DNA of 64,000 nucleotides from Candidatus Latescibacterota bacterium (GCA_963707635.1 OY970173.1:2016001-2080000), one strand, 5' to 3'. Counted from the first letter of the stretch, positions 5,887 to 38,517 are shown. Made by a program: numbers and translations. Notes: generated by a model from the letters alone, not told the origin.

Positions 5887-5897
5887 GGTCGATCTCC

Positions 5898-7342: not shown

Positions 7343-7356
7343 CGGCAGCCCCTGCG

Positions 7357-8139: not shown

Positions 8140-8167
8140 ACGCGCCCCCATGTCATGGCCAGACCAT

Positions 8168-9259: not shown

Positions 9260-9285
9260 GACACCCACCCGCCGACTAGTACGCC

Positions 9286-10572
9286 CTACTCATACACGCG
9301 AACCTCGGGAATCGGGACGACGAACTTGCCACCCCAGTCGCGGATAAACGCCATTTGCTGCATGATCTCGTCCTTGAGGTTCCACGGCAGGATAAACACG
9401 TAGTCCGGCCGCGTCTCGCGAATCTTTTCGGGCGCGAAAATGGGGATGCGCGCGCCGGGGGTGTACGTGTTCTGCTTGTGCGGGTTGCGGTCCACCGTGT
9501 AGTCGAGAAAGTCGGTGCCGATTCCGCAGTAGTTCAAGAGTGTGTTTCCCTTGCCGGGCGCCCCGTAGCCGGCGACGTGCGCGCCGCGGCGTTTCGCGTC
9601 GATCAAGAATGCGAGAATGGCTCGCTTGGTCTCCTTCACCTTCTCGCCGAACGAACGGTAGACCTCGAGCGATTCCACGCCCCAGCGCTGCTCACGCGCC
9701 TTGAGATCGACCACCCGCGGGCTCACGGGGTCGCGGCCGCCGGCGTGACGGCCGAAGATCCGCAGCGAACCGCCGTGCGTGGGAAGCTCGACCACGTCGA
9801 AGAGCGTGATCCCGTGCACCGAGAATACCTTCTCCACGGTGGTGAACGAGAAATACGAAAAGTGTTCGTGGTAGATGGTGTCGAACTGGTTCTGGTCGAC
9901 GAGTCGCACGAGGTGCGGGAACTCCATGGTGATGACACCGGAGGGGTTCAGCATCGCGCCCATGCCCGCCACGAAGTCGTTCAGGTCGGGCACGTGCGCC
10001 AGCACGTTGTTCCCCAGCAGGAGGTCCGCGCCGCCGAAGCGCTCGCGCAGCGAGCGCGCCGACGCCGTGCCGAAGAACTCGACCACGGTGCGCACCCCGC
10101 GCTTGACCGCGGCCTCGGCGACGTTACCCGCCGGCTCCACCCCGAGGACGGGGATTCCCTGCTCCACGAAATACTGGAGCAGGTAGCCGTCGTTGCTCGC
10201 GACCTCCACCACCAGGCTCTGCGCGCCCAGTCCCAGCCGCGGGCCCATTTCCTCCGCGTACGCGCGCGCGTGGCGAAGCCAGGTATCCGAATAGGACGAG
10301 AAATAGGCGTATTCCTGGGCAAAGATCTCGGTGGGGGTGGCGTACTCCCCGAGCTGCACCAGCCAGCAGGCCGTGCATACGAGCGCGTGCAGCGGATAGT
10401 AGGTTTCGGGGTCGTTGAGCTGCTCGGGCTTGACCTGCTTCTGACAAAGCGGCGTCGTGCCGAGATCGGCGAACGTCTCGCGCAGCGTTGCCCCGCAGAA
10501 ACGGCACGTCAGGCCCACGCGCGCGAGCGCGTGCGGCGGCTGGCGGGCCGGCGTCGATGACGTGGGATTCAC
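9286..10572 (-). CDS. NDP-hexose C-methyltransferase (Zn-binding + SAM + C-methyltransferase C-terminal domains)
   Basis: CRFC...CTACWLVQL zinc site, EVASNDGYLL, FDTIYHEH, HGGSLR, YGAPGKGNTLLNY. Confidence 0.9.
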   Translation of the reverse strand: MNPTSSTPARQPPHALARVGLTCRFCGATLRETFADLGTTPLCQKQVKPEQLNDPETYYPLHALVCTACWLVQLGEYATPTEIFAQEYAYFSSYSDTWLRHARAYAEEMGPRLGLGAQSLVVEVASNDGYLLQYFVEQGIPVLGVEPAGNVAEAAVKRGVRTVVEFFGTASARSLRERFGGADLLLGNNVLAHVPDLNDFVAGMGAMLNPSGVITMEFPHLVRLVDQNQFDTIYHEHFSYFSFTTVEKVFSVHGITLFDVVELPTHGGSLRIFGRHAGGRDPVSPRVVDLKAREQRWGVESLEVYRSFGEKVKETKRAILAFLIDAKRRGAHVAGYGAPGKGNTLLNYCGIGTDFLDYTVDRNPHKQNTYTPGARIPIFAPEKIRETRPDYVFILPWNLKDEIMQQMAFIRDWGGKFVVPIPEVRVYE

Positions 10573-11807
10573 GGCTGATACCCCCGGGCCTGCTCGCCCG
10601 CCGCCGCGAGGCGGGTCGTGAAATCTTCTCCCAACCGGTCGCAGAGAGTGGCGGCGATTCGCTCCGTGAGCGCGTTCCAGTCGTAGGCACGAGCCACGCG
10701 GCGGCGCTCTTCGGCGCGCTCCGGGGTTCGCTCCGCCGGCGAAAGCGCCGCCTCGATCGCGGAGACCCACTGCCCCGGGTCGCGCGCGATGGCGACGACG
10801 TGCTCGAAGTCACGCAGCGTACGCAGATCGGCTCCGACCACCGGGCGCCCCGCTGCCAGGTACTCGTGCAGCTTCAGCGGGAAGATGTAGCGCGTATAGT
10901 CGGTCAGCGCGTAGCACAGCAAACACACGTCCATGTGCTGCGTGTAGGCCGGTATCTCGCGCACGGTGCGGTTACCGAGGTAGTGCACGTTCGGACGCGC
11001 CAGGAGCGCGTCCTTGTGGGGCGCGCTCGCGCCCATGTGCCCCACCGGCCCGACCAGCACGATGGACCAGTCTGGACGCCTGGCCGCGACCTCCGACAGC
11101 GAGTGCCAGTCGAGCTGCGACTTGAGTCGTCCGATGTAGCCGATGCGCGGGTGCGCGATGCGCGCGAGGTCGGGTGGCTCCGGAGCGGGCTGCGCAAAGG
11201 AGGCATAATCGACGCCGTTGGCCACGTAGCTGGTGTTCGGATTGATGCGACCCTTCTTCTCCAGGAGCGCGGGCGAGTGGACGAAGACCTGGTCGACGCG
11301 CTCGATCACGCGCCGTTCCGTCGCCGACAGGGGCTGTTCGACGTCCGAGAAGGAGTATTCGTCTGCGATGTGGTAGCAGCTCACGTCGTAGTCGGCCAGA
11401 TCCAGCACCTCCGCGAACTTGGGTTGCCAGAGGTAGAGAATGATCCGCTTGGCGCCGGCGCGCTCCAGGATGCGGCGCGCCTGGCGCAGGCGCGCCCGCT
11501 CGGCTGCGCGCCGCAGGGCGCCGGGCCGATAGAACTTGGGGAGCCACCGGCCGTGGTCGTACACGTCGAATCCGGTCCCGGGCGGCTGCGTCGGATCGAC
11601 CATGGCCGCCGGAGCGTGCAGCATCGACCGCAGCGGCCGCGGCGGATTATACCAGACTACCTGGAAATAGCGCGCGAGGCGAGTCAGTATCTGGTGGCGT
11701 GAGAGCCACATTCCGCCCCACCGTTCGGCGACAACCGCGATCACGCCGATCTCCGGGAGCGCAGGACCCGCGGGGCTGGTTGCCGGCGGCGCCGGTCCCA
11801 CGGTCAC
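10569..11807 (-). CDS. Glycosyltransferase, GT-B fold (TuaH/GT4-like)
   Basis: SRHQILTRLA, YVANGVDY, IGYIG, FPLKLHEYLAAGRPVV; GTG start overlaps the upstream TGA. Confidence 0.85.
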   Translation of the reverse strand: MTVGPAPPATSPAGPALPEIGVIAVVAERWGGMWLSRHQILTRLARYFQVVWYNPPRPLRSMLHAPAAMVDPTQPPGTGFDVYDHGRWLPKFYRPGALRRAAERARLRQARRILERAGAKRIILYLWQPKFAEVLDLADYDVSCYHIADEYSFSDVEQPLSATERRVIERVDQVFVHSPALLEKKGRINPNTSYVANGVDYASFAQPAPEPPDLARIAHPRIGYIGRLKSQLDWHSLSEVAARRPDWSIVLVGPVGHMGASAPHKDALLARPNVHYLGNRTVREIPAYTQHMDVCLLCYALTDYTRYIFPLKLHEYLAAGRPVVGADLRTLRDFEHVVAIARDPGQWVSAIEAALSPAERTPERAEERRRVARAYDWNALTERIAATLCDRLGEDFTTRLAAAGEQARGYQP

Positions 11808-12754
11808 TTGCCGCTCCGCGCGCCCTGCGCCTCGCGTCCAGACCCCGGCAGCAGGCGCCGCTTGATTGGGCGAAGCACGAAGCGCGCCGCGTAGGAAGCG
11901 TCCTCCCAGAGTCCGTCGGCGTTGTGCATGAGCCAGCGCGGCAAATGCGCGGTGCAGGCGATCTTCTCGGCGGCGGACACCTGCGCCCTTCGGATGGCGC
12001 CGAGGTGACCCAGGAACTGCCGCGTGTACGGAAACACCGGTTTCCCGGCCTTGGACTGGTCGAACCATGCGTTTCTTGTCTGGCGGGACCGATACTGCCG
12101 CACCGACCGATTCCCGTGCTGCCGATGATGAAACAACACGTCGGGCAGCTCGACGATCCGGCCGGCGAGCCCGATCTCTGCCAGCAGCACGCGGTCGCAA
12201 TCGGCGTAGTCCGAGAGCAGTCTCGTGCGCCGGACCATGTCGGCGCGCATGAGCCCGAAAATCACGATGCACGAGTGCTCGCGGCGCGCGAGCTCGCGAA
12301 AACGCGTGGGGACGTGCGGCGTGTCCGTGTCCATTCCGAAAGACACCACCTTGAGCGTGTTCCCCTTCTCGTCGATGTCGCGTACGCGCGTGTGGACCGC
12401 AACCGCACCCGGGTCGCGATCCAGCACCTCGACACACCGCTCGAGATAGGTGGGCTCGTGGACGTCGTCGTGCGCCGCCCACTTGAAGTACTCCCCCGTT
12501 GCCAGCTCGAAGACCCGGTTGAAATTGTGGCGGCCGCCGAGGTTGGTCTCGTTTCGGTAGTAGCGCACGCGGGGATCACGTCGCGCACGCTCCCGGCAAA
12601 TGGTCTCGGTCGCGTCGGTCGATGCGTTGTCTGAAATGATGAGCTCGAAGTCGCGGAAGGACTGGGCGAGCAGCGAGTCCAGCGCCGGAGCCAGGAACTC
12701 GGCACCGTTAAAGACCGGCACACCCACGCTGACCCGTGGTGTCTTAGCGCTCAC
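11804..12754 (-). CDS. Glycosyltransferase family 2
   Basis: VSVGVPVFNG, ISDNASTD, FKWAAHDD; GTG start after GAGG. Confidence 0.9.
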   Translation of the reverse strand: MSAKTPRVSVGVPVFNGAEFLAPALDSLLAQSFRDFELIISDNASTDATETICRERARRDPRVRYYRNETNLGGRHNFNRVFELATGEYFKWAAHDDVHEPTYLERCVEVLDRDPGAVAVHTRVRDIDEKGNTLKVVSFGMDTDTPHVPTRFRELARREHSCIVIFGLMRADMVRRTRLLSDYADCDRVLLAEIGLAGRIVELPDVLFHHRQHGNRSVRQYRSRQTRNAWFDQSKAGKPVFPYTRQFLGHLGAIRRAQVSAAEKIACTAHLPRWLMHNADGLWEDASYAARFVLRPIKRRLLPGSGREAQGARSGK

Positions 12755-12883
12755 TTTGACCTCGTTTCGCCGGGTGGCGAATGCCGGAGCTTGTGACAGC
12801 ATGATCCGATGCGAGAATGCCCTGTCGGCACGCCGCACGCAAGCAAAAGCGAGCGTGCGCGATGGTCTAGCCGCCTGCCAGGC

Positions 12884-12954: not shown

Positions 12955-13746
12955 TCAGTACGCGCCCTTGCCGGTGAGAACCACGTAGATCGTCCGGAAG
13001 AGGATCTTCAGGTCCATCCACGGGCTCCAGTTGCGGATGTACACGAGGTCGAAGTGCAGCTTCTGGCGCAGTCCGTCGTCGGTGTTCGTATACCCCAGCG
13101 CGACCTGGGCCAGGCCGGTGATGCCCGGCTTCGTCCGCAGGCGGAGTTGGAACTCCGGAAGGTCCTTCTCGATGCGGCCGATGAAATAGGCGCGCTCGGG
13201 TCGCGGCCCCACGATGCTCATGTCACCGTGGAGCACGTTGATGAACTGCGGGACCTCGTCGATCCGGGTCTTGCGCAGCACACGACCGACGGGGGTGATG
13301 CGGGGGTCCTGCTCCTTTGCCCACAGCGGAGGTGTTCCCCGCTCGGCATCCACGACCATGGTCCGGAACTTATAGATGGTGAACGGGAGCCCGAAATTCA
13401 CCAGCACCCGGCGGTCGCGTCCGCGCCGGCTGGCTTCGACGTCGCTCACGCGGGTCCGACGATCGCGCAACCGCCGGTTGACCCCGACGCGCTCCTGACG
13501 ATAGAACACCGGACCCGGAGAGGTCGACTGGATGAGCGCAGCCGCCACCAGCATGACGGGCGAGAGTATCACCAGCGCGGCGATACTGATTACGACGTCC
13601 AGGGCGCGCTTCCACCCCAGGCGCCCGCGCACGTCATAGGGGTGCCGGGCGGGCCTGTCGACGGCAACGACCGGAATCTCCCGGTCGGCGAGCAGCCAGG
13701 GAAAGCGAACCGGGTTGGGGCGGGCGAAACGGGTTCCGAAAGTCAT
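12955..13746 (-). CDS. Priming sugar transferase (Bac_transf / phosphoglycosyl transferase) with an Arg-rich insertion
   Basis: KRALDVV, YKFRTM, DPRITPVGRVLRKTRIDEVPQF, GDMSIVGPRPER, KPGITGLAQV. Start re-called to 13746 because the track start (13848) overlaps a sigma-54 promoter. Confidence 0.92.
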   Translation of the reverse strand: MTFGTRFARPNPVRFPWLLADREIPVVAVDRPARHPYDVRGRLGWKRALDVVISIAALVILSPVMLVAAALIQSTSPGPVFYRQERVGVNRRLRDRRTRVSDVEASRRGRDRRVLVNFGLPFTIYKFRTMVVDAERGTPPLWAKEQDPRITPVGRVLRKTRIDEVPQFINVLHGDMSIVGPRPERAYFIGRIEKDLPEFQLRLRTKPGITGLAQVALGYTNTDDGLRQKLHFDLVYIRNWSPWMDLKILFRTIYVVLTGKGAY

Positions 13747-13831
13747 CGTCGTACCGGGTTCCGAGTTCGAAAGAAAGGGGGCGGGGTGTGGGACGAAACG
13801 TAAATACAGAACACCCCGCAGGGGCGTTGAG

Positions 13832-13847
13832 AGCATCTTCAATGCCA
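13832..13847 (-). promoter_or_regulatory. Sigma-54 promoter (-24/-12)
   Basis: Minus strand TGGCATTGAAGATGCT, preceded by an AT-rich ~280 bp intergenic region. Confidence 0.7.
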
Positions 13848-14128
13848 CTGGAGCGCTTGCGACCCAGCTGGTTTCGCCGGGCGAACCATGCTCGGTATGG
13901 TGTGTTATTACAATGCGTTAGAGAGCGCGGTGCGAGTGATCTCTACGACGAGCGTGCTAAACGGTGATGGTAGGGTTGGGGCTGAATCGGTTATTTCACC
14001 CAGGCGCAAGCGCCGGCCGCGAAGATAACTACAAGTGATAGATTGTGTTACAGACGCACCGCCGGCCATGGGCGAATGGGGATAATCGCCCATGAAATCA
14101 ACTACTAAGCGGAGGATGGAGCGGGCGT

Positions 14129-15412
14129 CTACTCGGCGACGATCTCGAAAATGTGCCCCGCGCTCTTGTAGCGCTGGCGCTCCTCGTCTGCCTCGTCGAA
14201 CGACCGGAACCGGCCGAGCACCACGCGGTAGTGCCCCGCCACGGACTCGACCTTGGCCGGGATCTTGAGAAGTTCGAGTGCGCGGACCTCGGAGCGCGCG
14301 CTGTCCAGCCACGAGTGCGATCCCGCCACCAGCACGAAGGTGGTCGGCGTCGACTGGGCGCGGCCGGCCCGCGGCGCGATGGGAGCAGGCGCCGGCGCGG
14401 AGGGCGGCACGGGCGGCGCCGTGTCGCCGAGCGGCACGGTTACCGGCGGGCGACGCGAGGGCCCCGCCATGCCGAACGAATACGAAAGCGAGAACGTGTG
14501 TGTGCTCGAGAAATACTCCTGCGGCGTGTAGGCATACTCGATCGCAAAGGCGCTGTAGCGCACGCCGAAGCCGGCGTTGAACGGGGTCTGCGACTGGGCG
14601 TTGTCGAGGTTGTCGTTCAATCCCGTGCGCAGCGTGAACATGGTGTTGATCTGATAGTCGACGCCGAACTGAAGCCGCGTCCCGTACGAGTCCGAGTTGG
14701 CGACCTGGGCGCCGGCATAGAATTGCCCGACCGCCGAGTCGAAGACGCGCCCGCCCCCGACCATCCACTCGGGCGCGATGCTCCAGGTGCCGGACGGGTA
14801 CGAAACCGAGCCGCCGATATCCCGCGCCGCCAGGTGGATCAGATTGCGCCCGATGTGGTATGCCGCTCCGGCGTGGAACGCGTATCCGGTCCCGGTATTC
14901 GGAAAAATGTGCTCCCGCAGGTACGTGGCTCCGACCGCGGCCGAGAGGCCAGTGCCGCGAAAGGCGCGGCTGAGCGTCATGTCGAAGCCGACGTTGTAGT
15001 AGCTCTGTTCCGAGATGGCCGACATCGCGTCGTTGTAGCCGACCAGCCCGCCCGAGTAGAGGAAGGTGCCGCCGATCCCCAGGACCGTGGACCCGTCGCC
15101 GAGCGGAACCGCGACCCCGGCCGCGCTGAAGGTCAGATCGTCCAGCCACTCCGCGGCGGTGATGAAGGCCTGGGTGTGCTCGAGGCCGGAGGTGAACGCC
15201 GGATTCGAGTACATGAGTGATGCATCGGGGCTGAACCCCGCCACCGCATCCGGTGACGACATGAGTCGCGCCCCGACCGGAATCTTGAGGAACGAAGCGG
15301 CGTAGCTGCCCGCGCCGGTCTGGGTTCGGCCGGCGCCGGTCAGGGCCAGGAGTGCGATCAGGGCCAGGCCGGAGACGGCCAGTCCGCGACGGGTAGGTGC
15401 GTAATGTCTCAT
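14129..15412 (-). CDS. PorV/UPF0164-family outer-membrane beta-barrel fused to a C-terminal SPOR domain
   Basis: Signal peptide; ASFLKIPVGAR..S...A...DASLMYSNPA N-terminal signature; alternating beta strands ending THTFSLSYSF; Pro-rich linker; SPOR-like FVLVAGS...YRVVLGRFRSFDEA. Confidence 0.75.
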   Translation of the reverse strand: MRHYAPTRRGLAVSGLALIALLALTGAGRTQTGAGSYAASFLKIPVGARLMSSPDAVAGFSPDASLMYSNPAFTSGLEHTQAFITAAEWLDDLTFSAAGVAVPLGDGSTVLGIGGTFLYSGGLVGYNDAMSAISEQSYYNVGFDMTLSRAFRGTGLSAAVGATYLREHIFPNTGTGYAFHAGAAYHIGRNLIHLAARDIGGSVSYPSGTWSIAPEWMVGGGRVFDSAVGQFYAGAQVANSDSYGTRLQFGVDYQINTMFTLRTGLNDNLDNAQSQTPFNAGFGVRYSAFAIEYAYTPQEYFSSTHTFSLSYSFGMAGPSRRPPVTVPLGDTAPPVPPSAPAPAPIAPRAGRAQSTPTTFVLVAGSHSWLDSARSEVRALELLKIPAKVESVAGHYRVVLGRFRSFDEADEERQRYKSAGHIFEIVAE

Positions 15413-15471
15413 CGAGCCCTTCCCTGCCGTGTCGTTGCGACGATGTCTAGCGGTGGATGCCGTTCGAAATG

Positions 15472-15487
15472 AGCAAACCCGGGGCCA
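15472..15487 (-). promoter_or_regulatory. Sigma-54 promoter (-24/-12)
   Basis: Minus strand TGGCCCCGGGTTTGCT, 60 nt upstream of the PorV-SPOR ATG. Confidence 0.65.
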
Positions 15488-15779
15488 AGGGCCCACCGCG
15501 CAAACCGTTGGTTTCAATCGCAGTCGATAGTATCCGAGGATTCCAAACCAGGGCATGTAATCTCCCTAACAGCCGGCCGTTAGTCGCCGACGGCGGGGCG
15601 GTTCTGCCTCAATCTGCACGGTCTCGCCGTGCAGGCACCATGACGCTTCGACAAACTTTCTGGCGGGGGCGATTTTCAGGGGCCGGCTGGAGCGTTTGCG
15701 GCCGTTGGGCCTGGTTCCAGCCGTCGGGTCGACGCGTCCCGTGCCGACGCGCCCGCCCCGGAGCTGGACCGGAGGGCCA

Positions 15780-17303
15780 TTAGGGGCGACCCTCCATCTC
15801 ATCCAACCGGCGTTGAGCTACTCTCGCATACCGTGTTTCCGGAAAACGCTCAATACATTTCTTCAGCATCGCGACGGCCTTGGGACGGTCGTTCAGCTCC
15901 GTCAAGTAGAGCTCCCCGGCCTTGACCATCCCGGCGGCGGTCGCGTCGTCGTCCCACTCCGGCGTCGCCGAGGCGAGGATCTCCGCCACGTCCCCGGCCC
16001 GCCCGCTCATCACGTAACTGGCCGCCAGGGCCCCCTGCACGGTGAGGCGATCGCCCGCGAACTGGCTGCGCCGGTCGATGAGCGAGAGGTAGTACTCCCG
16101 GGCACGCTCGAGCGCGCGCTCCGCGAGCTCCGTCTCGCCCCGGTCCACGTAGTGGCGCACGATGACCATCGGGGTCTCGATCGCGGCCGCCGAATAGGGG
16201 TAGATCTGCTGCGTGCGCCGCAGCAGCGACAGCGACTCGTCCCAGGAGCCCTGCCGCTCGAGGACCTGGGCGCGCGTCAGCATCGCCCGCGAAACGACCG
16301 CTTCCGGGGCGCCTGGCGCGTCCTCGAGCGCCCGGAACGCCTGCAACGCGCCCGCCTCGTCGCCCCCCTCGAGCTGCAACTCGATCAAGTCGTAACGCGC
16401 GGCGAACGCCGCGTCCGTGTCCGGATACTTCTGGACCACGCCGGCCAGCACCGGCTCCGCGGCGGCGGCGTCCTTGCGAGCGAACGCGTGGATCTCGCCG
16501 AGCAGCAGTTCGAGCCCGGCGGCGTCGGCGGCCAGGCCCGGCGTCGCGATGGCCCCGGCGAGTTCGCGGGCGGCGTCGTCCCATTCGCCGCGCACCATGT
16601 GGAGCTGAATACGTCCCAGACGGGCCTGGTCGGCGCGGGGCGAACCCGGCCACGTGGCCACGACGCGGTCGTAGAACCCGGCCGCGAGGCGGGAGGATTC
16701 GTCGTAGCGCTCGTGGTCGCCGTTCTCCTGGTACATCCTCACCAGCACGATCGGAATGTTGAGAAAGACGTCGTCCAGCTCGACACGCCCGGACCAGAAA
16801 TCGGGGCTCTCGACGATGGCCGAAAACATGCGCGCGCACTGATCCAGCGCCGCGCTGCTTTCGCCCGCCATGTACATCGACCGCGCGGCGCCGAGGCGGG
16901 CTTCCAGCGCGCTGCGCAGCGGGATCGAGCCGCGCTCGACGGTCTCGCGATACATGCTGCCGGCGTCGACGTAGCGCTCGCTCAAGAAGTACAGGTTGGC
17001 GAGCGCGATCCGGGAGGACAGCAGGATGTGTCGAATGTCGTCGACGACGGGTGCGCGCCACGAGTCGGCGCCGGGGTCCGCGAGCGGGTCGTCGGCGACC
17101 ACGCGCTGGTAGGCGTCGATGGCGAGCCGGGTGTCGTTCTGCGACGCCTGCATGAACGAAAGGTTGATCCGGCGCTGAAAGAACTGCGCGCGCCACAAAC
17201 GCCGCTCGAGGTCGTAGCGCGCGCGAACGTCGTCCGTGGGCGCGCACGAGACGACGAGCGGCCACAGCGCCGCGACCCAGAGCCAGCGCGGGTACCGCGT
17301 CAC
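15780..17303 (-). CDS. TPR-repeat lipoprotein
   Basis: Lipobox VVS-C; repeated YfiO/CpoB-like helical motifs (VVATWPGSPRA, VVQKYPDTDAA, CIERFPETRYA). Confidence 0.8.
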   Translation of the reverse strand: MTRYPRWLWVAALWPLVVSCAPTDDVRARYDLERRLWRAQFFQRRINLSFMQASQNDTRLAIDAYQRVVADDPLADPGADSWRAPVVDDIRHILLSSRIALANLYFLSERYVDAGSMYRETVERGSIPLRSALEARLGAARSMYMAGESSAALDQCARMFSAIVESPDFWSGRVELDDVFLNIPIVLVRMYQENGDHERYDESSRLAAGFYDRVVATWPGSPRADQARLGRIQLHMVRGEWDDAARELAGAIATPGLAADAAGLELLLGEIHAFARKDAAAAEPVLAGVVQKYPDTDAAFAARYDLIELQLEGGDEAGALQAFRALEDAPGAPEAVVSRAMLTRAQVLERQGSWDESLSLLRRTQQIYPYSAAAIETPMVIVRHYVDRGETELAERALERAREYYLSLIDRRSQFAGDRLTVQGALAASYVMSGRAGDVAEILASATPEWDDDATAAGMVKAGELYLTELNDRPKAVAMLKKCIERFPETRYARVAQRRLDEMEGRP

Positions 17304-18127
17304 CGCAGGCCGCCTTCCTCGGGCAGCGCGAGCGCGGTGGTGGCGGCAAACAAGAGGTAGGCCGTGAGCACTTCGAGCAGCGCCGATCCGAGCAGCGCGT
17401 AGAAGACGAGCTCGGGCTGAAAACGGGACGCAATGCCGTCCGCGCGCGAGAGCAGCGCGTCGAGCGGGGCATGGACGGCCAGGACCGTGACCACGACCAG
17501 GAGCGTCGGCGCGAAGTTCTGCGCCGCGTATCCGATGCTGGCCCGCACCGCCGGCAACGCTCCCCCGCCGCGCAGACGCAACACGATCGGCGTATAGACC
17601 AGGAACGTTTGCACGCAGGCGGTGACTGCTACGGAGCCCACGACGGCGGCGCGCGCCGGGAGCCCGGTGGGCAGCATGGCGGCGAGAGCGCCCAGGCCGT
17701 AGCCGACCGCGACGCTCGTCCCCACGAACACGACTCCGACTCCCAGCACGTGCGGGAGTGCGGCTCGAAACGAGGGACGCGGGCGCGACCGGCCGACCAC
17801 GTGGTGGTCGACCATGAGCCAGACCCCCGCGCTCCACGCGGCGAAGCCGACGGTGGCCGCCAGCGGCAGGTAGATGCGCTGGTAGACCTCGGGCAACCGC
17901 ACGAAGTGGAGCGGGTAGTGAAGCGAATCGGCGCCGCCCAGCGCCTGCACCACCGGGACCATGAACGAGGCGATGGGACTCGCCGTGAAGAACGCGAGCA
18001 GGACCAGGAGCGCGCACTGCAGCGCGCCGAACGCGGCGAAGGGGACGAACACGCTCGGCGCGCGGAACCCGAGCCGCATGTTCGCGAGTCCGTCGAGGTA
18101 GCTACTGATGGTCTGGGTCAGATTCAT
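17300..18127 (-). CDS. Hypothetical polytopic membrane protein (~6 TM)
   Basis: Multiple hydrophobic segments; overlaps both neighbours. Confidence 0.7.
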   Translation of the reverse strand: MNLTQTISSYLDGLANMRLGFRAPSVFVPFAAFGALQCALLVLLAFFTASPIASFMVPVVQALGGADSLHYPLHFVRLPEVYQRIYLPLAATVGFAAWSAGVWLMVDHHVVGRSRPRPSFRAALPHVLGVGVVFVGTSVAVGYGLGALAAMLPTGLPARAAVVGSVAVTACVQTFLVYTPIVLRLRGGGALPAVRASIGYAAQNFAPTLLVVVTVLAVHAPLDALLSRADGIASRFQPELVFYALLGSALLEVLTAYLLFAATTALALPEEGGLR

Positions 18128-18758
18128 CGCGCTCCCGAAACAACCGTTCGATCTCCGTGTGTACGGTCCGCGCATAGGGCTCGACATGGCGTTGCGCCTG
18201 CGCGATGTCGGACGCAAACGGCGTCGAGATGCTGACGAACGCCACGTCCTGGGGCCGGCGCCTCAGGGCGCGACCGGCGAGCTCGAGCTTCAGCCCCACC
18301 TCGTCGGCGAGGACGCGGTCGCTGGTCTGGTACCAGTAACAGACGATCCGCCGCTCGAAACCGTTGTGCACGACCAGGGCCCGCAACTCGCCGGTCCCCC
18401 ACGGCACCGGCCAGCGCGTTTCCTGCTCGATGTTCCATCCCGAACCCGGGTAGCAGTGCCGGGGCGAGTGGACCTGCGAGCCCTCGCGCTGGCGATCGAA
18501 ATACCCTACGAAGACCCATACAGGCTCGTCCGCATCGGGTTCGTAGGTGCGGTAAAGCACCTCGCGCGCGCGCAGCGCATCGAAGAACTCCGGCTCGAGC
18601 GCCTCGTCGACGTACGCAGGCGCCACCCCGGCCAACCCCGCGCCGGCGAGCCCGAGATCTCCCGGATCCGCGGGTTCGGTGGCGCGCAGCGAATTGCCGG
18701 CGAGGGCCACCACCGCCAGTGCGATGGCGAGCGCTATCTGCGCGCGTGTCCGATCCAC
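18102..18758 (-). CDS. epsI: EpsI family protein (exosortase-associated periplasmic domain)
   Basis: N-terminal TM; VWVFVGYF...QVHSPRHCYPGSGW and YWYQ motifs; directly after the exosortase. Confidence 0.88.
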   Translation of the reverse strand: MDRTRAQIALAIALAVVALAGNSLRATEPADPGDLGLAGAGLAGVAPAYVDEALEPEFFDALRAREVLYRTYEPDADEPVWVFVGYFDRQREGSQVHSPRHCYPGSGWNIEQETRWPVPWGTGELRALVVHNGFERRIVCYWYQTSDRVLADEVGLKLELAGRALRRRPQDVAFVSISTPFASDIAQAQRHVEPYARTVHTEIERLFRERDESDPDHQ

Positions 18759-19579
18759 TCGAGCCCCTTTCCGCCGGCGACCAGGGCCAGAACCCCGGTG
18801 ACGAATACCACGACCCCCGAGAGCTCGTGAAGGAAACTCTGCGCCGCCGCCGGTCCGGCGATGGCCGCGATGCCGGCGGTGAGCGAGAGCCGGGCCACGT
18901 TGGCGCCCACCGCGATGGGAATCACCAGCGCCAGGAACACGAGCCTGCGCACGACGCCGAGTGCGAGCCAGTCCAGCATGAACCACGCGAGTGTGCCCAG
19001 CGTCATGATCGACCGCAGGCCGCTGCAGGCAGCGACGACTTCCAGTGCGTATCCCTCCAGACGAATGACGTTGCCTTCGCGCACGAGCGGCATTCCGGCC
19101 AGGCTCAGGATCTCGGCCGCGATGCGCGAGCTCTCGAGCTGCAGGGGAAAGGTGAGGCGGTAGTACACGAGGTACGGGAGCGGGACCATGCACAACAGAA
19201 ACGCGATCGGATAGGCGAGGACGCGAAAGCGCTCGCGCCCCTCGATCGTGATCACCATCCCGGCCACCACCACCACCAGCGACACCCGCATGGTGAACAG
19301 CTCGGCGGTGAGGAGGCCGAGCAGGTACAGGCAGACGCCGGCGCCGGTGACCCAGAGCCCGGCCCCGTCGACGCGAGCCGCGGCGGCAAGGAAGCGGTGG
19401 CGCCTCCGCCAGGCCAGGACGGCCGCCATGGGGAGCACGAAGAAGCCGTGGGCGTAGTTCGGGTCGTCCGCCCACTGGTGGGCCAGAGACGCCGCTACGA
19501 ACCAGTACGCCGCGGCGAAGGAAAGCAGGAGCAGGATCGACGAAGCAACCGATCGAGGCGCGGGAACGGCGAGCCTCAT
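18734..19579 (-). CDS. Exosortase (EpsH family)
   Basis: W..DPNYAHG, REGNVI, and the catalytic Cys-Arg-His residues in VVAACSGLRS, ANVARL and FLHELSG; ATGA overlap with the upstream gene. Confidence 0.93.
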   Translation of the reverse strand: MRLAVPAPRSVASSILLLLSFAAAYWFVAASLAHQWADDPNYAHGFFVLPMAAVLAWRRRHRFLAAAARVDGAGLWVTGAGVCLYLLGLLTAELFTMRVSLVVVVAGMVITIEGRERFRVLAYPIAFLLCMVPLPYLVYYRLTFPLQLESSRIAAEILSLAGMPLVREGNVIRLEGYALEVVAACSGLRSIMTLGTLAWFMLDWLALGVVRRLVFLALVIPIAVGANVARLSLTAGIAAIAGPAAAQSFLHELSGVVVFVTGVLALVAGGKGLEWIGHARR

Positions 19580-21381
19580 TGCTCCGATTGCACCAGGAAG
19601 CGGCCGGCGGAATGCACCGCGCCCGAGCCGTCCGTGACCCGGACGAGATAGAGCGCCGGCGCCACCCGCTGCCCGGTGTCGTTGGTGAAGTCCCAGGACC
19701 AGGTGAACCCGTCCGCGCTGCTCTGGAAGCGCCGCACCGCGACGCCGGTCGCGTCGAAGATCCTGACCAGCCATGCGCGCGGCAGATTGCGAACCTCGAG
19801 CGGTCGGTGCGGATCGTCGGCCCAGAAGCCGTCCGGCACGATGGCGCCGGTGCTGGATGCAAGGTCCGTCCCGACGGTGAAGGTGAACACCAGCGGCGTG
19901 GCGCAGTTCTGTACCGCAGCGCGGTCGCACGCCTCCACGTCCACGCGGACCTCGGTCCCGCTGCCGAAGGCGGTATCGGGCCGGTAGCGAATTTCGGCGC
20001 TGGTCGGCGTGCCATCGACGGTGAACACGACCGGGGTTCCGTTCACGCGCATTTCCACCGAGGCGAAGTCTATTCCCAGGCCGCCATCGGCGAGCGACAC
20101 CACGAGGGTCGGCCTCGGTTCCACCCCGATCGCACCCGCCCCCGGGCTCACGACCTGAATCGTCGGCGCGGTGACGTCGTTGGCGGCGGCGGAGCCGGTT
20201 CGAAACGTCCAGTTGCGGCTCATCACGTTGGCCGGGTTCGCGCGGTCGGAGGCGGTCATCTCCACCAGCACGTCGGTGTTGGGAGGAAAGTCCGACGCGG
20301 GGTTGCACTGGACCGCGTAGCCGTTGCTGGCGGGTGTGAGCGACGGCGTGATCGCCACTCCGTTTGCCATCACCTGGATGGAGCTGGCGCTCACACCCGT
20401 CTTGTCGTCCGTCAGCACGAAATAGATGTTTGCGTTCAGCGGTACACCGGTCGCCCCCGGCGCCGGCGCCCGCTGGCTGATCGAAGGCGCCGCGACGTCG
20501 GTTCCCTGCGCGACCAGGGTCACCTCGGACGAATAGCCGCTGAACGTGCCTGCACCGGTGTAGGAGCGCACCGCGAAATAGTACGTTCCGGCGGCGAGGG
20601 CGCAACGCGACGCGGTGGTGGTGTTCCCCGCGTCGACCGAATCCGTGTAGGCGGCCTGGCTGCGGCGCCGGGTACCGAAATACATCCGATAGCCGGTGAC
20701 GGTGGGGTCGCTGACCCGGTTCCACGTGACCTGCGCGCAGCCGAGGGTGGGCTCCGTCACTCTCACGTTGGTCGGCGGCACCGGTCCAGCCGTGTTCTGG
20801 TTGCTGATGGTCGTGGTCGAAGGCGCGGATCGCCCGCTCCAGCGGTCGAACGAGTTGTGCGCGCGCAGCGCGAAGTGGTACGTCCCGGTCTGCATTCCAC
20901 AGCGGGTATACGTCGACTGGGTGCCGTTCTTGACGATGTCGAGCCGGTCGATCGACAACGAGTCGGTGTAGACGCCCGGATTACCGCCCCAGAGCAGCGT
21001 GTAGTCGGTCACGTAGTCGGTGACCGCGGCGCTATTCCAGCGCAGGACCACACAGCCGTCGGTGCTCCCGGTGGCGACCAGTCCCGCGGGGACGGCCGGG
21101 GTGACGGGCTGGATGCCGGTGAGGGTAAACACGTAGACGTCGCCGGTCTGGGTGACATCTTCGAGCGTGATCGACGTGGCCGGGCTGGCGACCTGGCTGC
21201 CCGCCGCAGCCCCGTTCTTCCGGATGTTGTAGTTGCCGGCCGGCGCCAGATCGAAGATCAGGAATTGCGTGTTGCCCGCCGCGGGTTGCGATCCTGCGGA
21301 TGCCTTGCCGGCGGCGTGTGTGCTTGCCGCGGCGACGACGAGCGCCACGAACAGAACGATCGAGAATGCATGACGGACCAT
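19576..21381 (-). CDS. Secreted fibronectin-III/Ig-repeat protein with a C-terminal FlgD-Ig / T9SS-type sorting domain
   Basis: Signal peptide; two FnIII repeats (LRWN...DYTLLWG...YHFALRAHN; VTWN...GYRMYFG...YYFAVRSY); two Big_5-like repeats; C-terminus VRIFDATGVAVRRF...WDFTNDTGQRVAPALYLVRV. Confidence 0.8.
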   Translation of the reverse strand: MVRHAFSIVLFVALVVAAASTHAAGKASAGSQPAAGNTQFLIFDLAPAGNYNIRKNGAAAGSQVASPATSITLEDVTQTGDVYVFTLTGIQPVTPAVPAGLVATGSTDGCVVLRWNSAAVTDYVTDYTLLWGGNPGVYTDSLSIDRLDIVKNGTQSTYTRCGMQTGTYHFALRAHNSFDRWSGRSAPSTTTISNQNTAGPVPPTNVRVTEPTLGCAQVTWNRVSDPTVTGYRMYFGTRRRSQAAYTDSVDAGNTTTASRCALAAGTYYFAVRSYTGAGTFSGYSSEVTLVAQGTDVAAPSISQRAPAPGATGVPLNANIYFVLTDDKTGVSASSIQVMANGVAITPSLTPASNGYAVQCNPASDFPPNTDVLVEMTASDRANPANVMSRNWTFRTGSAAANDVTAPTIQVVSPGAGAIGVEPRPTLVVSLADGGLGIDFASVEMRVNGTPVVFTVDGTPTSAEIRYRPDTAFGSGTEVRVDVEACDRAAVQNCATPLVFTFTVGTDLASSTGAIVPDGFWADDPHRPLEVRNLPRAWLVRIFDATGVAVRRFQSSADGFTWSWDFTNDTGQRVAPALYLVRVTDGSGAVHSAGRFLVQSEQ

Positions 21382-21593
21382 GATCCACCCCCGGCCGCGC
21401 GCCGGCGGCACGCCTTGGGAATCATCGAATCGAATCGACGCCAACTTGTTACAGAGCTTGAGTCGCGACGGTCAGGGGCTGCAAGAACCGTGCACGGCGG
21501 CCGGGGCTGGGCCCGCACGTGACCGAGACACACCATTGGAGATTCCGCCGGGGAGGTCAAGGAGAATGTCGGCGTAATTCCCCGGCGTTCCGC

Positions 21594-21620: not shown

Positions 21621-22784
21621 CTAGAAGCGGTACTCGAAGCGTTCGATGCGCTCGATCGCGTCCCGGTCCCCCGCTTCCAGCACGCGCACGGCGCGAACGA
21701 GCTCCCACGGGGTCGAGAAATGAACGACGTGGCGCTCGCCGTCGTCGTAGCGGGCGAGCAGGTCGGCGAAAAGGGCGACCAGGCTTCCCGGTCCGTCCCC
21801 CAGCAGGCGGGCCGAATTCCGCTCCTGTGCCCCGTGCGTGTGCGCCTTGATGAACACCCAGCGCGGGAAGCCGGCCACCGTGATGCCGGTGCGGACCCAC
21901 GCGTCGAGGCGGTCGGGGGTCGGTGGGTTCGACCCGGTCAGGTCGCCGTTTTCGATCGCGGGAAGAACGCCCCTGCGCCGCTGCTTCCAATTCACCCCGA
22001 GCGGCCCCGTCACGATGAGCGGGCCCGCCGGGCCCGCGACTCCGAGTTGCGCGTCGACGCCGCGAAAGTGCGCGCGCGGGGCACGGGGATCCCCGGCCGC
22101 GTAGTAGATCCGGTTGATCACCGGCGGCTGCGACGGGTGCGGCGCCGACGGCAGCGTGAAATCGCCGTAGCAGCCGGTCTCGCGCAGGACGACCAGCTCG
22201 TCGTCGACGCCGCAATCGCGGCCGCGCCGGCCGGAGTTACCGAGCACCCAGTTGCCGTGGATGAAGGCGTACGTCGCCTCCCGGGTGAACGGGTCGTCGT
22301 GGAGCAGCCCGTGCTGCTCGCGCAGCGTCCGCTTGAAGGCGAGCAACTTGCTCCGGAGCGCCTCCGAGGTGTCGCGGTCGTGGTGGAGGTGGATTTCGAC
22401 TTCGCCGAAGCCCGCGCGCTGGACTTCGGCCAGCGTCTCGACGCAGCGGGGTTCGAGCGCGTATTCCTCCTGCGGGTAGAAGAACCCATGACGCGGCGGC
22501 CGCCCGCCCCGGTCGTGGAAACGCGCCGCGATCTCGGGGTAGCGCTCGCGCCAGCGCTGCGCGCGTTCCCGCGCGAGTTCGCGGTCACGGTTGTGCCAGA
22601 AGGGCTCGAAGTGGTCGACGATGCAGAAGAAGACGTGGCGAACTCCGTCGGCGCGGGGGCCACGCCGGCGGGCCAGGCCGGCGCGAACGATGAGGTCGAG
22701 GTTCTTGCCCCGGACCAGGCGCCACAGCGCGACGCCGGTAGCGGCGGCGGCGAGCCCGAGGATCGACAGGAGGACCGGCGTCAC
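21621..22784 (-). CDS. Conserved hypothetical protein, probable glycoside hydrolase/deacetylase-type metal barrel
   Basis: N-terminal TM; His/Asp-rich motifs VDHFEP, EIHLHH, FIHGNW, KAHTHG. Confidence 0.6.
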   Translation of the reverse strand: MTPVLLSILGLAAAATGVALWRLVRGKNLDLIVRAGLARRRGPRADGVRHVFFCIVDHFEPFWHNRDRELARERAQRWRERYPEIAARFHDRGGRPPRHGFFYPQEEYALEPRCVETLAEVQRAGFGEVEIHLHHDRDTSEALRSKLLAFKRTLREQHGLLHDDPFTREATYAFIHGNWVLGNSGRRGRDCGVDDELVVLRETGCYGDFTLPSAPHPSQPPVINRIYYAAGDPRAPRAHFRGVDAQLGVAGPAGPLIVTGPLGVNWKQRRRGVLPAIENGDLTGSNPPTPDRLDAWVRTGITVAGFPRWVFIKAHTHGAQERNSARLLGDGPGSLVALFADLLARYDDGERHVVHFSTPWELVRAVRVLEAGDRDAIERIERFEYRF

Positions 22785-22788
22785 GCGG

Positions 22789-24183
22789 TCACCACGCCAT
22801 GTAGAGGAACAACTTGGTGAACAGCCATCCGCCGATCGCGCACAGGAACGCGTACACGAAGTCCTTGCGTTCGAACAGGACGTACTTCTCGTCGCTCGTG
22901 CGCACGAACATCTGGGTCACGGCCGTGCTCAATCCGATCATGATGTAGAGCAGTTCGCTGTACGTGCGTGAGAGCCAGTACGCCCCCAGACAATACGCGA
23001 TCAGGCTGTAGCGGAGCGTATCGACATAGAGCGCCAGCGAGCGTTCCCCGCGTTTCTTCAGCTCGTGGGCGATGAACGTGTTGTTCTTGATCGAGAGGTA
23101 GATCAGCATGACCCACGCGTACAGCCCGAAAATGCCCAGCTCCGCCGCGCACAGGACGAAGGAGTTGTGGGCGGTGCGGAAATGATACTCGGTGAAGTTG
23201 TTGTAGCCCACCCCGAACGGGATGAACTGCTCGAACAGATCGATGCCGATCCCCCACGCCTGGATGCGCCCGTACGCGGATGCCTCCTCGGTGGAGATGG
23301 TGGACATGCGCGGTCCCAGCACGAACAGGACGAACATGGCCAGCCCGCCGACGCCGTAACCGAGCACCTTTCCCAGCCGCCGGCTCAAGAGGATCATGAG
23401 CAGCGCGCCGAACGCCATCAGGCCGCCCCGCGACTGGGTGAGATAGAGCGCGTACGCCAGCAGCGCGAGGGTCAGGAAGGCGAACAACTTTTCCACCGGT
23501 TTCGCGCGCTCGAAGAGCTGCAGGAAGAGAAACGGCATCACCATGACGAGCGCGAGGCCGAGGTCGTTCGGGTCGGAGAAGATGCCGATCGCCTGGATGC
23601 GCCCCTCGTAGGTCTGCTGGCCGCCGAGTCCGAAGCCGGTGAAATACTGGACGATGCCCTGCACGGCGAGCGCCACCGTGAGCACGACCAGCAACTTGAT
23701 GATGAAACCGAGTCGCCGGGGGGTGTCGACCAGGTTGGCGATCAGGAAGTACATCATCAGGATGGCGAGGAACTCGGTGGCGGCGCTGACTACTCCGGCC
23801 ACGACCATGGTGCGCATCTGCGAGAGCAGAATCGCGGCGAAGAACCACAGCATGACCCAGTTCTGGGGCGCGTGTGCCACGCGGATCTGCCGTTTCTGGA
23901 CCGCCATGTGCAGAATGAAGAGAGCGATCGTCGCTGCGCCGATCAGCAGCATCACCGGGGCACCCATCAGGCCGGGGACGTAGTCCTGGGGGCGCAGGTA
24001 GAGAAACAGCAGGTAGTTCACCAGGCCGACGAAAGGCTGCACGAAGAGCACGGTGACCCCGACGATTCCCGCGCCCGCGGCGATGGCCATGCCGGTGGAG
24101 TCCAGCATCAGCTTCGTGACCACCAGCGCGAGCAGGCACGTGATCACGAACGTGACCGCAACGGTGACGCGGCGATTATCCAT
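22789..24183 (-). CDS. O-antigen ligase/polymerase family (Wzy_C) membrane protein
   Basis: Many TM segments; GIFSDPNDLG, TQSRGG, SAYGRIQAW, GVGYNNF, TAHNSFV. Confidence 0.88.
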   Translation of the reverse strand: MDNRRVTVAVTFVITCLLALVVTKLMLDSTGMAIAAGAGIVGVTVLFVQPFVGLVNYLLFLYLRPQDYVPGLMGAPVMLLIGAATIALFILHMAVQKRQIRVAHAPQNWVMLWFFAAILLSQMRTMVVAGVVSAATEFLAILMMYFLIANLVDTPRRLGFIIKLLVVLTVALAVQGIVQYFTGFGLGGQQTYEGRIQAIGIFSDPNDLGLALVMVMPFLFLQLFERAKPVEKLFAFLTLALLAYALYLTQSRGGLMAFGALLMILLSRRLGKVLGYGVGGLAMFVLFVLGPRMSTISTEEASAYGRIQAWGIGIDLFEQFIPFGVGYNNFTEYHFRTAHNSFVLCAAELGIFGLYAWVMLIYLSIKNNTFIAHELKKRGERSLALYVDTLRYSLIAYCLGAYWLSRTYSELLYIMIGLSTAVTQMFVRTSDEKYVLFERKDFVYAFLCAIGGWLFTKLFLYMAW

Positions 24184-25396
24184 CGCACCTCCCCGCCGCA
24201 CCGCGGAGCAGTCCGTCGAGACGCGCGGCGATCGCGGCATGGGAGTACGCGCGAACCTGCGGGGGCACCGGGGTGGTGGGACCGCCGTCGCGACGGACGG
24301 CGACAACAAAGCGAGCCAGCGTCGCGGCGGCAGCGGCGGTATCGGGGCCGACGATCACCTCGCCGATCCCGGCCTCCCGCACGAGCGCCGCGGAGTCGCC
24401 TTCCGGCACCAGCGCCAGCACACGTCGCCCCGACGCGAGGTATGGATACGCCTTGCTGGGGACGCACGTCCGCCAGCTCTCGCGCTGCGGCAGGAGCAAA
24501 AGCAAGCCGCGCGCGCGGCGCATGGCGCGCAGACTCTCTTCGTGCGAGACGAAGCCGCGCCGTTCGACCCGGCTCTCCAGCCCGCGCTCGACGACCTTGC
24601 GCCACTCCCGGGGGTCGACGTTACCGTATATGGCCAGACGCGGCGCCCCCGCCGGGTCGTCCTTCGCGAGCCGCGCGACCACGTCGACGTAGAGATCCAT
24701 CATGCCGGGATAGACCTCGCCCACGTAGGTGAGGTCCGCACTCTCGGAGGTCGTTTCGGCCGGAGCATCGAGCATGGAGTCGTCGAAGCCGTTCGTCAGC
24801 ACGTCGACGCGCCCGGGGGCGAGAGCTGGAAAGGATGCCAGCAGCGCATCCCGGTTCCCGCGCGTATTGGCGAGGACCAGGTCCGCCGCCGAGAGCACGC
24901 GGCGTTCCAGCGCGCGATGCAGCGACTGCGAGAGCCGGCGGCGCGGATAGCGCGAGGGGGCCGTCCAGGGGTCGCGGTAGTCCGCCACCCACACGAAGCG
25001 ACGGCGGCGTCGAACGGCGGTGACGACACACTGGCTGGAATGCGGCGGACTCGACGTGAGCACCGCGTCGAACGACTCGTGGTCGAGCAGGCGCGTGAGC
25101 GCACCGGCAAGCGCGAGCGACCAGCCGACGTGCACGTCGGGAAACGCGACGTCCTTCCACAGACCCGCGAGGCGCCGCCGGACGTATCCACGACTGCGCT
25201 CGGTGTCCGCGCTGCCGCGTGATGTGGACACCACCCGAACGCCGTCCGCCGCGCGGGAGCCGGGTGCGGCGGTCAGCACCGTCACCTCCCAGCCGGAGGC
25301 CGCCAGGTGGCGCGCCATCGAGGCGACGCGCAGACTCCCGGGCGTGATCCACGGCAGGTAGTGGTACGAAACGACGAGGAGCCGCGGCGTGTGCAT
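24176..25396 (-). CDS. Glycosyltransferase family 4
   Basis: LTSSPPHS, WVADYRDPW, LTNGFD, PSKAYPYLASGR. Confidence 0.85.
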   Translation of the reverse strand: MHTPRLLVVSYHYLPWITPGSLRVASMARHLAASGWEVTVLTAAPGSRAADGVRVVSTSRGSADTERSRGYVRRRLAGLWKDVAFPDVHVGWSLALAGALTRLLDHESFDAVLTSSPPHSSQCVVTAVRRRRRFVWVADYRDPWTAPSRYPRRRLSQSLHRALERRVLSAADLVLANTRGNRDALLASFPALAPGRVDVLTNGFDDSMLDAPAETTSESADLTYVGEVYPGMMDLYVDVVARLAKDDPAGAPRLAIYGNVDPREWRKVVERGLESRVERRGFVSHEESLRAMRRARGLLLLLPQRESWRTCVPSKAYPYLASGRRVLALVPEGDSAALVREAGIGEVIVGPDTAAAAATLARFVVAVRRDGGPTTPVPPQVRAYSHAAIAARLDGLLRGAAGRCDG

Positions 25397-25398
25397 GG

Positions 25399-28957: not shown

Positions 28958-28985
28958 ACGTGAAACGAACGCCGGCCACAAACGG

Positions 28986-29018
28986 CGAGGTCGCGTGGAC
29001 TTATACCACGCGACCTCG
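28986..29018. repeat. Perfect 13-bp inverted repeat with a 7-nt loop
   Basis: CGAGGTCGCGTGG-ACTTATA-CCACGCGACCTCG in the intergenic gap. Confidence 0.85.
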
Positions 29019-29056
29019 GTACTCAACAACGAACGTTTCCGACCGCCCGGGCGCGA

Positions 29057-32749: not shown

Positions 32750-32920
32750 CGCATGCTCCTTACGTCGTCGATCGCGACGGGGCCTGGAGGGACGCGCGCG
32801 GACAGGGATCGCGCGTGTTCCCCGGAGGCGTTCGTCATCTCCCCGCAGGCCATCGCGGCCATGGGGTCGGCATCGAACGCCGCTATCGGATCAGTCACTG
32901 GGTGAATTCCGGGGCGAATC

Positions 32921-32937
32921 TGCAAGCCGTGTACCAA
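32921..32937 (-). promoter_or_regulatory. Sigma-54 promoter (-24/-12)
   Basis: Minus strand TTGGTACACGGCTTGCA upstream of the 1230-aa gene. Confidence 0.7.
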
Positions 32938-33063
32938 GTTACACATGACAGCCCGACGGCACGATTCACCGCCATGAGGCGCACGGCAATGCGCAAAAGA
33001 TGACGCGGGGCGGCACGATCTGCAATCTATTTTATTCGACGGTCCCGCGCGCGAGCGGCGGGC

Positions 33064-35228: not shown

Positions 35229-35230
35229 GG

Positions 35231-38492: not shown

Positions 38493-38517
38493 GGACGCGC
38501 GCGACCTGCGGGAACGC

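Follow-up and report, generated by a model that had tools for sequence, protein, structure and literature searches.

We analyzed a stretch of 64,000 nucleotides from a Candidatus Latescibacterota bacterium (GCA_963707635.1 OY970173.1:2016001-2080000), which we call the window, and in particular six of its genes (Table 1). These encode a secreted protein with fibronectin type III (FnIII) domains, an exosortase, EpsI, a protein with six transmembrane segments (6-TM), a tetratricopeptide repeat (TPR) lipoprotein, and a PorV-family barrel with a SPOR domain (PorV-SPOR). We think that this is probably an exopolysaccharide locus with two separable modules: the exosortase and EpsI (module A) would serve a single PEP-CTERM protein, and the FnIII protein would be a type IX secretion system (T9SS)-type cargo that is paired with PorV-SPOR (module B). 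The arrangement, in which module A is set within module B, is conserved and uncatalogued, and it is not one hybrid sorting machine. An earlier note on this DNA had coupled the exosortase to the T9SS-type cargo, and we do not find support for this, because some relatives that keep the FnIII protein and PorV-SPOR lack the exosortase and EpsI along with the PEP-CTERM gene.

Much of that note's description of the locus did hold up. The five overlapping genes and the PorV-family-SPOR gene are real, and scans with Pfam and NCBIfam mostly upheld their identities; the intact cysteine, arginine, and histidine of the exosortase and the adjacent EpsI were confirmed by profiles and by Cys185, Arg230, and His251, and the barrel by profiles and fold matches. 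There is indeed no PEP-CTERM tail in the window. Among the checks that it proposed, a comparison of relatives showed that gene order is conserved across the family, and a genome-wide search found SprA. The source genome (G000) is a single contig of 3.2 Mb and is 96% complete, and homologues carry the source label Candidatus Krumholzibacteria.

The exosortase and its predicted substrate

The exosortase is above the cut-offs of TIGR02602 (172 bits versus 105.55) and PF09721 (200 versus 25.7), and EpsI is above that of TIGR02914 (101 versus 42.8; its coordinates are approximate, as we chose the start codon). The exosortase's motifs (Cys185-x-Gly, Asn227-x-x-Arg230, and His251-x-x-x-Gly) recur in the loci of 21 of 22 relatives, and the single miss is a fragment at the end of a contig. 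By a genome-wide search, it is the only exosortase in the genome, and it scores below the cut-off of every named subtype (XrtA, 155.7 versus 208; XrtB, XrtD, XrtV, and XrtW are lower relative to theirs).

The genome's only PEP-CTERM protein above the cut-offs is encoded outside the window, about 1 Mb from the exosortase (G000:C1:3020205-3019684). It scores 22.6 versus 16 on TIGR02595 and 23.4 versus 20.7 on PF07589. (One of four matches was over the cut-off in one genome scan, and one of two in another.) The protein has 173 amino acids: a signal peptide leads into a body rich in Ser, Thr, and Gly, and the PEP motif at its end is followed by a helix and three arginines. We predict that it is the substrate of the exosortase. 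A relaxed genome-wide scan for C-terminal tails recovered this protein as a control and gave 83 candidates, among which we saw no recurring alternative motif by eye. A loose TWG-type C-terminal tag pattern occurs in 40 reading frames of the genome; on inspection, we rejected it as an exosortase signal, as these tails lack the helix-basic structure.

The order FnIII, exosortase, EpsI, 6-TM, TPR, PorV-SPOR, sugar transferase is kept in the genus, in the family, and in G023, so the arrangement is not due to chance. In six relatives (G003, G010, G014, G025, G030, and G035), the exosortase and EpsI are gone from loci that are contiguous and free of Ns, and the FnIII tail and PorV-SPOR are kept. The loci of G003 and G014 contain the FnIII, 6-TM, TPR, and barrel genes. 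In G010, the 6-TM and TPR genes are missing from the locus, and the FnIII gene overlaps PorV-SPOR by ATGA with no exosortase between them. These last three genomes belong to the source genus, and the PEP-CTERM gene is missing from each of them between intact flanks: the gap at its site is 434-471 bp, versus 868-1018 bp in four carriers. G027, a genome in one contig, has the 6-TM, TPR, and barrel genes and no match to the exosortase; we counted it separately, since the FnIII-repeat gene of this genome is at another place and is cut into by masked bases. G029, whose exosortase position is at the start of a contig, was excluded from the loss count.

Across 41 genomes, 19 have both the exosortase and a PEP-CTERM protein, 15 have neither, and 7 are discordant. 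(G001 was scored as substrate-positive, with a tail that falls in an N gap.) Four of the discordant genomes have assembly breaks or omissions: a contig ends at the substrate site in G016 and at the exosortase site in G021 and G022, and a flanking gene is absent from the assembly of G009. The other three are discussed below. The FnIII tail and PorV-SPOR were compared across 41 genomes as well: 26 have both, 4 have the barrel only, and none has the tail only. In single-gene FastTree trees, the loci without an exosortase fall in several lineages.

We also sampled, by hand, 40 loci with the 6-TM gene from 70 other genomes of the phylum, favoring long contigs and distant families. An exosortase is present in 30 of these. 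Within about 9 kb, 27 of the 30 have a PEP-CTERM gene, 26 a PrsK-like gene, and 4 a PorV-like barrel, and none has an FnIII-type tail. In other families, the exosortase cassette is flanked by a PEP-CTERM gene and PrsK/PrsR-like genes, without the FnIII tail. In G026, the FnIII-type tail and PorV-SPOR are in another glycan locus than the exosortase genes. G026 also has a kinase and a regulator that exceed the PrsK and PrsR cut-offs; its PrsK aligns to the source genome solely over the generic C-terminal part. We rejected the kinase and the regulator in the window as PrsK and PrsR, since both are under the models' cut-offs (89 versus 300 for the kinase; 384 versus 502.6 for the regulator, on a model that was not applied to the genome's other regulators). 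A sigma-54-type pattern lies upstream of 6 of 20 PEP-CTERM substrate genes, and the source genome's own gene is without the strict pattern.

The FnIII protein and the PorV-SPOR barrel

The FnIII protein consists of a signal peptide, a small beta domain, two FnIII domains, two Big_5-like domains, and a C-terminal domain (about 513-596), with fn3 and Big_5 above their cut-offs. In the fold model (mean pLDDT 87), seven strands at 513-596 close the C terminus, and seven is the count reported for the C-terminal domains (CTDs) of T9SS cargo (PMC11285876; here and below, we refer to parts of the cited papers). This tail had been described as FlgD/T9SS-like. It appears to be CTD-like and to resemble that of PorZ: the PorZ model is matched by 50 of 51 FnIII homologues, at scores far under its whole-protein cut-off, and the match of the window protein is over the PorZ CTD. 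The more specific labels did not hold, as FlgD_ig gives 21.7 bits at residues 539-585 (cut-off 27) and TIGR04183, the type A tail, is matched weakly in 3 of 51 homologues. The type B tail model (CHU_C) does not match the protein. Fold searches with the full model gave match lists that were taken up by FnIII domains. The protein has no C-terminal membrane helix, so there is nothing for an exosortase to act beside.

A profile of the FnIII tail matches 25 of 151 genomes, all in families f1, f2, and f6. Within f6, the tail occurs in 5 of 10 genomes, and these same five have a related barrel that lacks SPOR; the tails of four scanned genomes sit on heparinase-like proteins. The window encodes a beta-helix/heparinase-like secreted protein of 1230 amino acids (29057-32749, minus strand), which is tail-less here; related heparinase-like proteins in G026 and in f6 bear the FnIII-type tail. 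Possibly, the FnIII gene arose as a stalk that split off from a heparinase-like cargo.

PorV-SPOR exceeds the cut-offs of NF033709 (93 versus 90) and of SPOR (26 versus 21), and it scores higher on the PorQ model than on the PorV model; PorP/SprF models are not among its matches. In its fold model, a barrel of 14 strands is joined by a flexible linker to a SPOR fold. The structures that match it best are PorV chains from T9SS translocons (8gl6_F and 6h3i_F), with FadL channels next. The likely start is the ATG at 15412, 367 bp past the stop of the TPR gene. When 11 intergenic regions were aligned, the sigma-54-type pattern upstream was present in 10 of them, a count that has no shuffle control. 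In the barrel tree, a single clade (support 0.954) unites those of f1/f2, f6, and genus g28 and is separate from the source genome's other eight paralogues; all barrels of this clade are in glycan loci. Two of those other paralogues also have C-terminal extensions (G000:C1 237597-238790 and 2501218-2503083), one FlgD-like and one seemingly TPR-like, so the genome has fused barrels more than once. In G056 (family f8; L149:5339-7250), an FnIII protein with a PorZ-like tail lies directly before a PorV-family gene, which adjoins glycan genes and belongs to a different branch of barrels.

The source genome has 115 matches to FlgD_ig (100 above the cut-off and 111 C-terminal) and nine PorV-family genes (seven above the cut-off), so a tail and a PorV gene near any given locus are not rare as such. 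For six of the nine PorV-family genes, the gene immediately before it bears a tail (in one case a tail outside the FlgD matches, which we included by hand), and most of the tails of the other PorV-adjacent genes are atypical, as is the FnIII tail. SprA is present as a frame of 2098 amino acids (492 bits versus 200) and is found in 31 of 31 sampled genomes. There are six C25 proteins; one has a tail and adjoins a PorV gene, and it is PorU-like by its C25 family. Searches for GldN and GldM gave no match in the source genome, nor did any control genome pass. Beside two PorV-family genes (G000:C1 1375170-1376916 and 231877-234481) are genes that, from their sequences, look like ExbB, ExbD, and TonB, and these are a possible other source of energy for a T9SS-like system. 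We also note a further cargo-barrel pair, a tail-bearing gene of 1052 amino acids and then a PorV paralogue (G000:C1 2566348-2562253), which is kept in five genomes of family f5 (L144-L148).

Layout of the locus and the 6-TM/TPR pair

All six genes are on the minus strand, at the positions where the earlier note placed them. In the run of five genes from FnIII to TPR, there are overlaps at four of four junctions, including ATGA between the FnIII and exosortase genes and GTGA between the 6-TM and TPR genes.

Table 1. Features of the locus, in window coordinates
Feature	Position	Strand	Basis and remarks
Secreted Ig/FnIII protein, 601 aa	19576..21381	-	Profile matches, fold model; module B, predicted T9SS-type cargo
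Exosortase (EpsH family), 281 aa	18734..19579	-	Profile matches, motifs; module A
EpsI of about 218 aa with a single N-terminal membrane anchor	18102..18758	-	TIGR02914; module A
6-TM protein, no named family	17300..18127	-	Six hydrophobic segments; H-(Y/F)-P-x-H loop conserved
TPR lipoprotein, 507 aa	15780..17303	-	TPR, leader and Cys
PorV/PorQ-family barrel, Pro-rich linker, and SPOR, 427 aa	14129..15412	-	Profiles, fold model; module B
Sigma-54-type -24/-12 site, a predicted promoter for PorV-SPOR by itself	15472..15488	-	Pattern search
Upstream elements of the FnIII operon, conserved	21479..21561	-	Alignment of 13 regions, by eye
Initiating polyprenyl-phosphate sugar transferase (WcaJ/EpsB-like)	12955..13848	-	Placed after the barrel in f1, f2, and f6
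Upstream exopolysaccharide genes	21621..44260	-	Profile scans
Downstream glycan genes	4633..12838	-	GT2, GT4, sugar C-methyltransferase, CDP-sugar enzymes, deacetylase, Wzm/Wzt ABC transporter

The upstream exopolysaccharide genes encode an O-antigen-ligase-like protein, glycosyltransferases, a deacetylase, the beta-helix/heparinase-like protein, a tyrosine autokinase, a chain-length protein, a Wza-type export protein, and nucleotide-sugar enzymes. With the ABC transporter on the other side, these bear out the glycan-locus setting that had been proposed for the six genes. The nearest of the upstream genes (21621-22784, minus strand) encodes a membrane-anchored protein of 387 amino acids with no match in Pfam or NCBIfam; given its His/Asp/Glu motifs, it is presumably similar to metal-dependent deacetylases. 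It is conserved, and in most relatives it is 5' of the FnIII gene. In the region upstream of the FnIII operon, a hexamer at 21553-21561 resembles a -35 box, and an element at 21479-21497 resembles a degenerate sigma-54 site; the strict sigma-54 pattern is found in none of the 13 aligned regions. By eye, there is also a conserved sigma-54-like site upstream of the initiating sugar transferase (13832-13848, minus strand), which suggests that this protein starts later than the open reading frame of 297 amino acids. In many relatives, including G018, G019, G020, G021, and G023, a DUF5683 protein and an FnIII lipoprotein that has a choice-of-anchor X domain precede the barrel, or else the sugar transferase (e.g., L034:13274-15941 and L035:13293-16026). 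We did not find this pair in the source genome.

The 6-TM protein belongs to no Pfam family and has no meaningful match in NCBIfam. A search of genomes from the phylum found its gene in 71 of 151, usually with the TPR gene after it. In 10 of 10 relatives shown, the TPR lipoprotein has a cysteine after its hydrophobic leader, and in relatives the gene adjoins PrsK/PrsR-like genes, which is the place of PrsT. The window TPR protein does not match the PrsT model (TIGR02917), and its homologue in G038 scores 22 versus 312; we rejected PrsT, BamD, and PorW as identities for it, as all were far under the cut-off. The likely role of the 6-TM protein and the TPR lipoprotein is that of an accessory to the glycan pathway in the periplasm, where they would take the place that PrsT has elsewhere. 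If so, the pair is a conserved and undescribed accessory of PEP-CTERM systems that is present in about half of the sampled genomes of the phylum.

Alternative readings and known systems

What we observed directly is the gene content and order, the families, the predicted folds, and the pattern of co-loss, and we infer every biochemical step that follows. In module A, Sec would take the PEP-CTERM protein across the inner membrane, as the protein's signal peptide suggests, and its tail helix would hold it while Cys185 cuts near the PEP motif, as in the family model. The processed protein might then join the polysaccharide coat, like PepA in floc formers. In module B, the FnIII protein is likely exported through SprA. 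Its PorZ-like tail would not be cleaved off and would bind to the PorV-family barrel that belongs to it, much like PorZ on PorQ or like type B cargo with SprF and PorE, and the SPOR domain would tie the barrel to the cell wall. The outcome may be a static adhesin or a glycan-binding stalk.

Several observations weigh against two separable modules. G017 (75% complete) and G043 (98% complete, from another family) have an exosortase and no match to PEP-CTERM, and G030 and G032 have PEP-CTERM matches and no exosortase. The relatives are not independent samples, and single-gene FastTree trees are rough. The FnIII tail scores under the cut-offs for type A and for FlgD, and in sequence it matches the PorZ CTD of 5M11 weakly (E 0.08). 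In the source genome, the FnIII gene and the barrel are set apart by four genes and by a predicted promoter for the barrel. Family f6 has the exosortase, the PEP-CTERM gene, the tail protein, and the barrel in one large glycan cluster, so co-location of the modules recurs. In four g28 genomes, a barrel of the same clade is directly upstream of the exosortase, with the PEP-CTERM gene upstream; these genomes have no FnIII-type tail that we could find and no tail of any kind in the locus, so the barrel does not always need an FnIII-type cargo. Finally, the 6-TM/TPR pair is found with either module and does not sort cleanly.

The f6 and g28 barrels, G043, the 6-TM/TPR pair, and the sigma-54 site of PorV-SPOR keep alive a reading that we consider unlikely, namely that the 6-TM protein, the TPR lipoprotein, and the glycan-locus barrel form a shared step from the periplasm to the surface for both proteins, with the PEP-CTERM product and the CTD cargo as interchangeable anchors of the polysaccharide. 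The pair does lie beside the exosortase, PEP-CTERM, and PrsK/PrsR-like genes in most of the sampled loci and beside the FnIII gene and PorV-SPOR in five genomes without the exosortase (G003, G014, G025, G030, and G035), but G010 keeps the FnIII gene and the barrel without the pair at the locus. Similarly, the barrels of f1/f2, f6, and g28 share a clade and a glycan setting, and the g28 barrel directly precedes the exosortase, yet such a barrel is absent within about 9 kb in 26 of the 30 exosortase loci that we sampled, and in four f5 genomes, the best barrel matches that we checked belong to a different paralogue. Part of PMC7468200 states that it is unknown by which route PEP-CTERM products get through the outer membrane, which leaves room for a shared step, but our PEP-CTERM product has no CTD-like domain. 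We are just as doubtful that there is a Krumholzibacteria PorV clade for exopolysaccharide loci that, with the 6-TM/TPR pair, provides a shared attachment step for CTD cargo or PEP-CTERM products. If there were, then the barrel would be the missing outer-membrane exit or anchor for PEP-CTERM proteins in some lineages, which bears on how these products cross the outer membrane, and a T9SS cargo could replace the PEP-CTERM protein as the polysaccharide anchor once the exosortase is lost.

It seems less likely still that the FnIII protein is an ordinary T9SS cargo that uses the general PorV/PorU route, with PorV-SPOR as a separate envelope protein of the glycan pathway (e.g., a lipid or glycan channel that is tied to septal peptidoglycan). 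Such a role would fit the barrel's own predicted sigma-54 promoter, its place before the initiating sugar transferase in f1, f2, and f6, its occurrence without the tail in g28, and its secondary resemblance to FadL channels. On the other hand, the tail was never found without the barrel in the 41 genomes, the two genes overlap in G010, and the tail is atypical, as are most other PorV-adjacent tails of the source genome. As for the idea that the exosortase acts on the T9SS-type cargo, builds a coat together with it, or reads an unrecognised signal, we give it very little credence. The ATGA overlap and the order that is conserved in f1 and in G023 speak for it, but there is a canonical substrate that is missing where the exosortase is missing, the cargo has no tail helix, the cargo and the exosortase each occur without the other, and the tail scan gave no second motif family. 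The co-loss, the syntenic gaps, and the sampled loci largely refute it. Among the things that the earlier note had named as speaking against its idea, an ordinary PEP-CTERM substrate was found elsewhere in the genome; the FnIII/PorV neighborhood, which might have been unconserved, turned out to be conserved.

In the literature on exosortases and PEP-CTERM, on T9SS, and on these phyla, mostly at the level of abstracts, we found no account of this locus, of the 6-TM gene, or of a PorV-SPOR fusion. Judging by its sequence, we place the exosortase part among the PEP-CTERM/EpsH systems, as a member with one substrate that falls outside the named subtypes. What it shares with these systems, as described in part of PMC1569441, is an EpsH-family enzyme with the Cys/Arg/His motifs, an adjacent EpsI, exopolysaccharide genes, a PEP-helix-basic substrate in a gene of its own elsewhere, a TPR lipoprotein, and, in relatives, adjacent PrsK/PrsR. 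The sampled exosortase loci match the gene organisation given there, with the TPR lipoprotein where PrsT often sits. There is one substrate here versus a median of eight there, but single-substrate genomes are known in that collection, so having one substrate does not exclude membership. Unlike the EpsH/PrsKRT system, our exosortase does not reach the cut-off of any named subtype, the TPR protein fails the PrsT model, there is an extra conserved 6-TM gene, and we found no orthologue of PrsK or PrsR in the source genome. In Aquincola, PrsT is needed for flocs and the sigma-54-dependent PepA is involved (PMC9850573, in part). For exosortase specificity, these relatives are a natural experiment, in which a pair of one enzyme and one substrate is missing together in several lineages.

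The FnIII protein and PorV-SPOR resemble known pairs of cargo and shuttle, yet by the models that we tested, they appear to be outside both type A and type B. In the T9SS of Bacteroidota, PorZ docks on PorQ. Our pair is similar to PorZ-PorQ and PorU-PorV in that its tail best matches the PorZ CTD and has seven strands in the model and its barrel is of the PorV/PorQ family, and uncleaved CTDs are reported in the attachment complex of Bacteroidota (PMC11285876). It differs in that the body of the cargo is an Ig/FnIII stalk (heparinase-like in relatives) instead of PorZ's body, SPOR is fused to the barrel, and the pair is in an exopolysaccharide locus of Krumholzibacteriota. The closest working model is the type B CTD with PorP-SprF and PorE of Flavobacterium johnsoniae and Porphyromonas gingivalis: the part of PMC12618676 that we cite has cargo paired with its own barrel and proposes static complexes that are anchored to the wall with PorE, so both have a cargo-linked barrel and a peptidoglycan-binding element. 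Here, however, the barrel is PorV/PorQ rather than PorP/SprF, the tail misses the type B Pfam model, wall binding is predicted to be by the SPOR that is fused to the barrel, and the barrel is directly downstream of the cargo in just one of the relatives examined. Dedicated one-to-one sorting systems have been described (bioRxiv 10.1101/2023.06.07.544157, in part), and a PorV/PorQ-family clade that is tied to glycan loci, with a fused wall-binding domain here, would extend the principle of a cargo with its own barrel beyond Bacteroidota. Finally, F. johnsoniae has XrtF as well as T9SS, so that an exosortase and T9SS are in one cell and both are tied to surface colonisation, as may be so here. 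XrtF has no known PEP-CTERM substrate (PMC10936215, in part), whereas the substrate in our bacterium is canonical.

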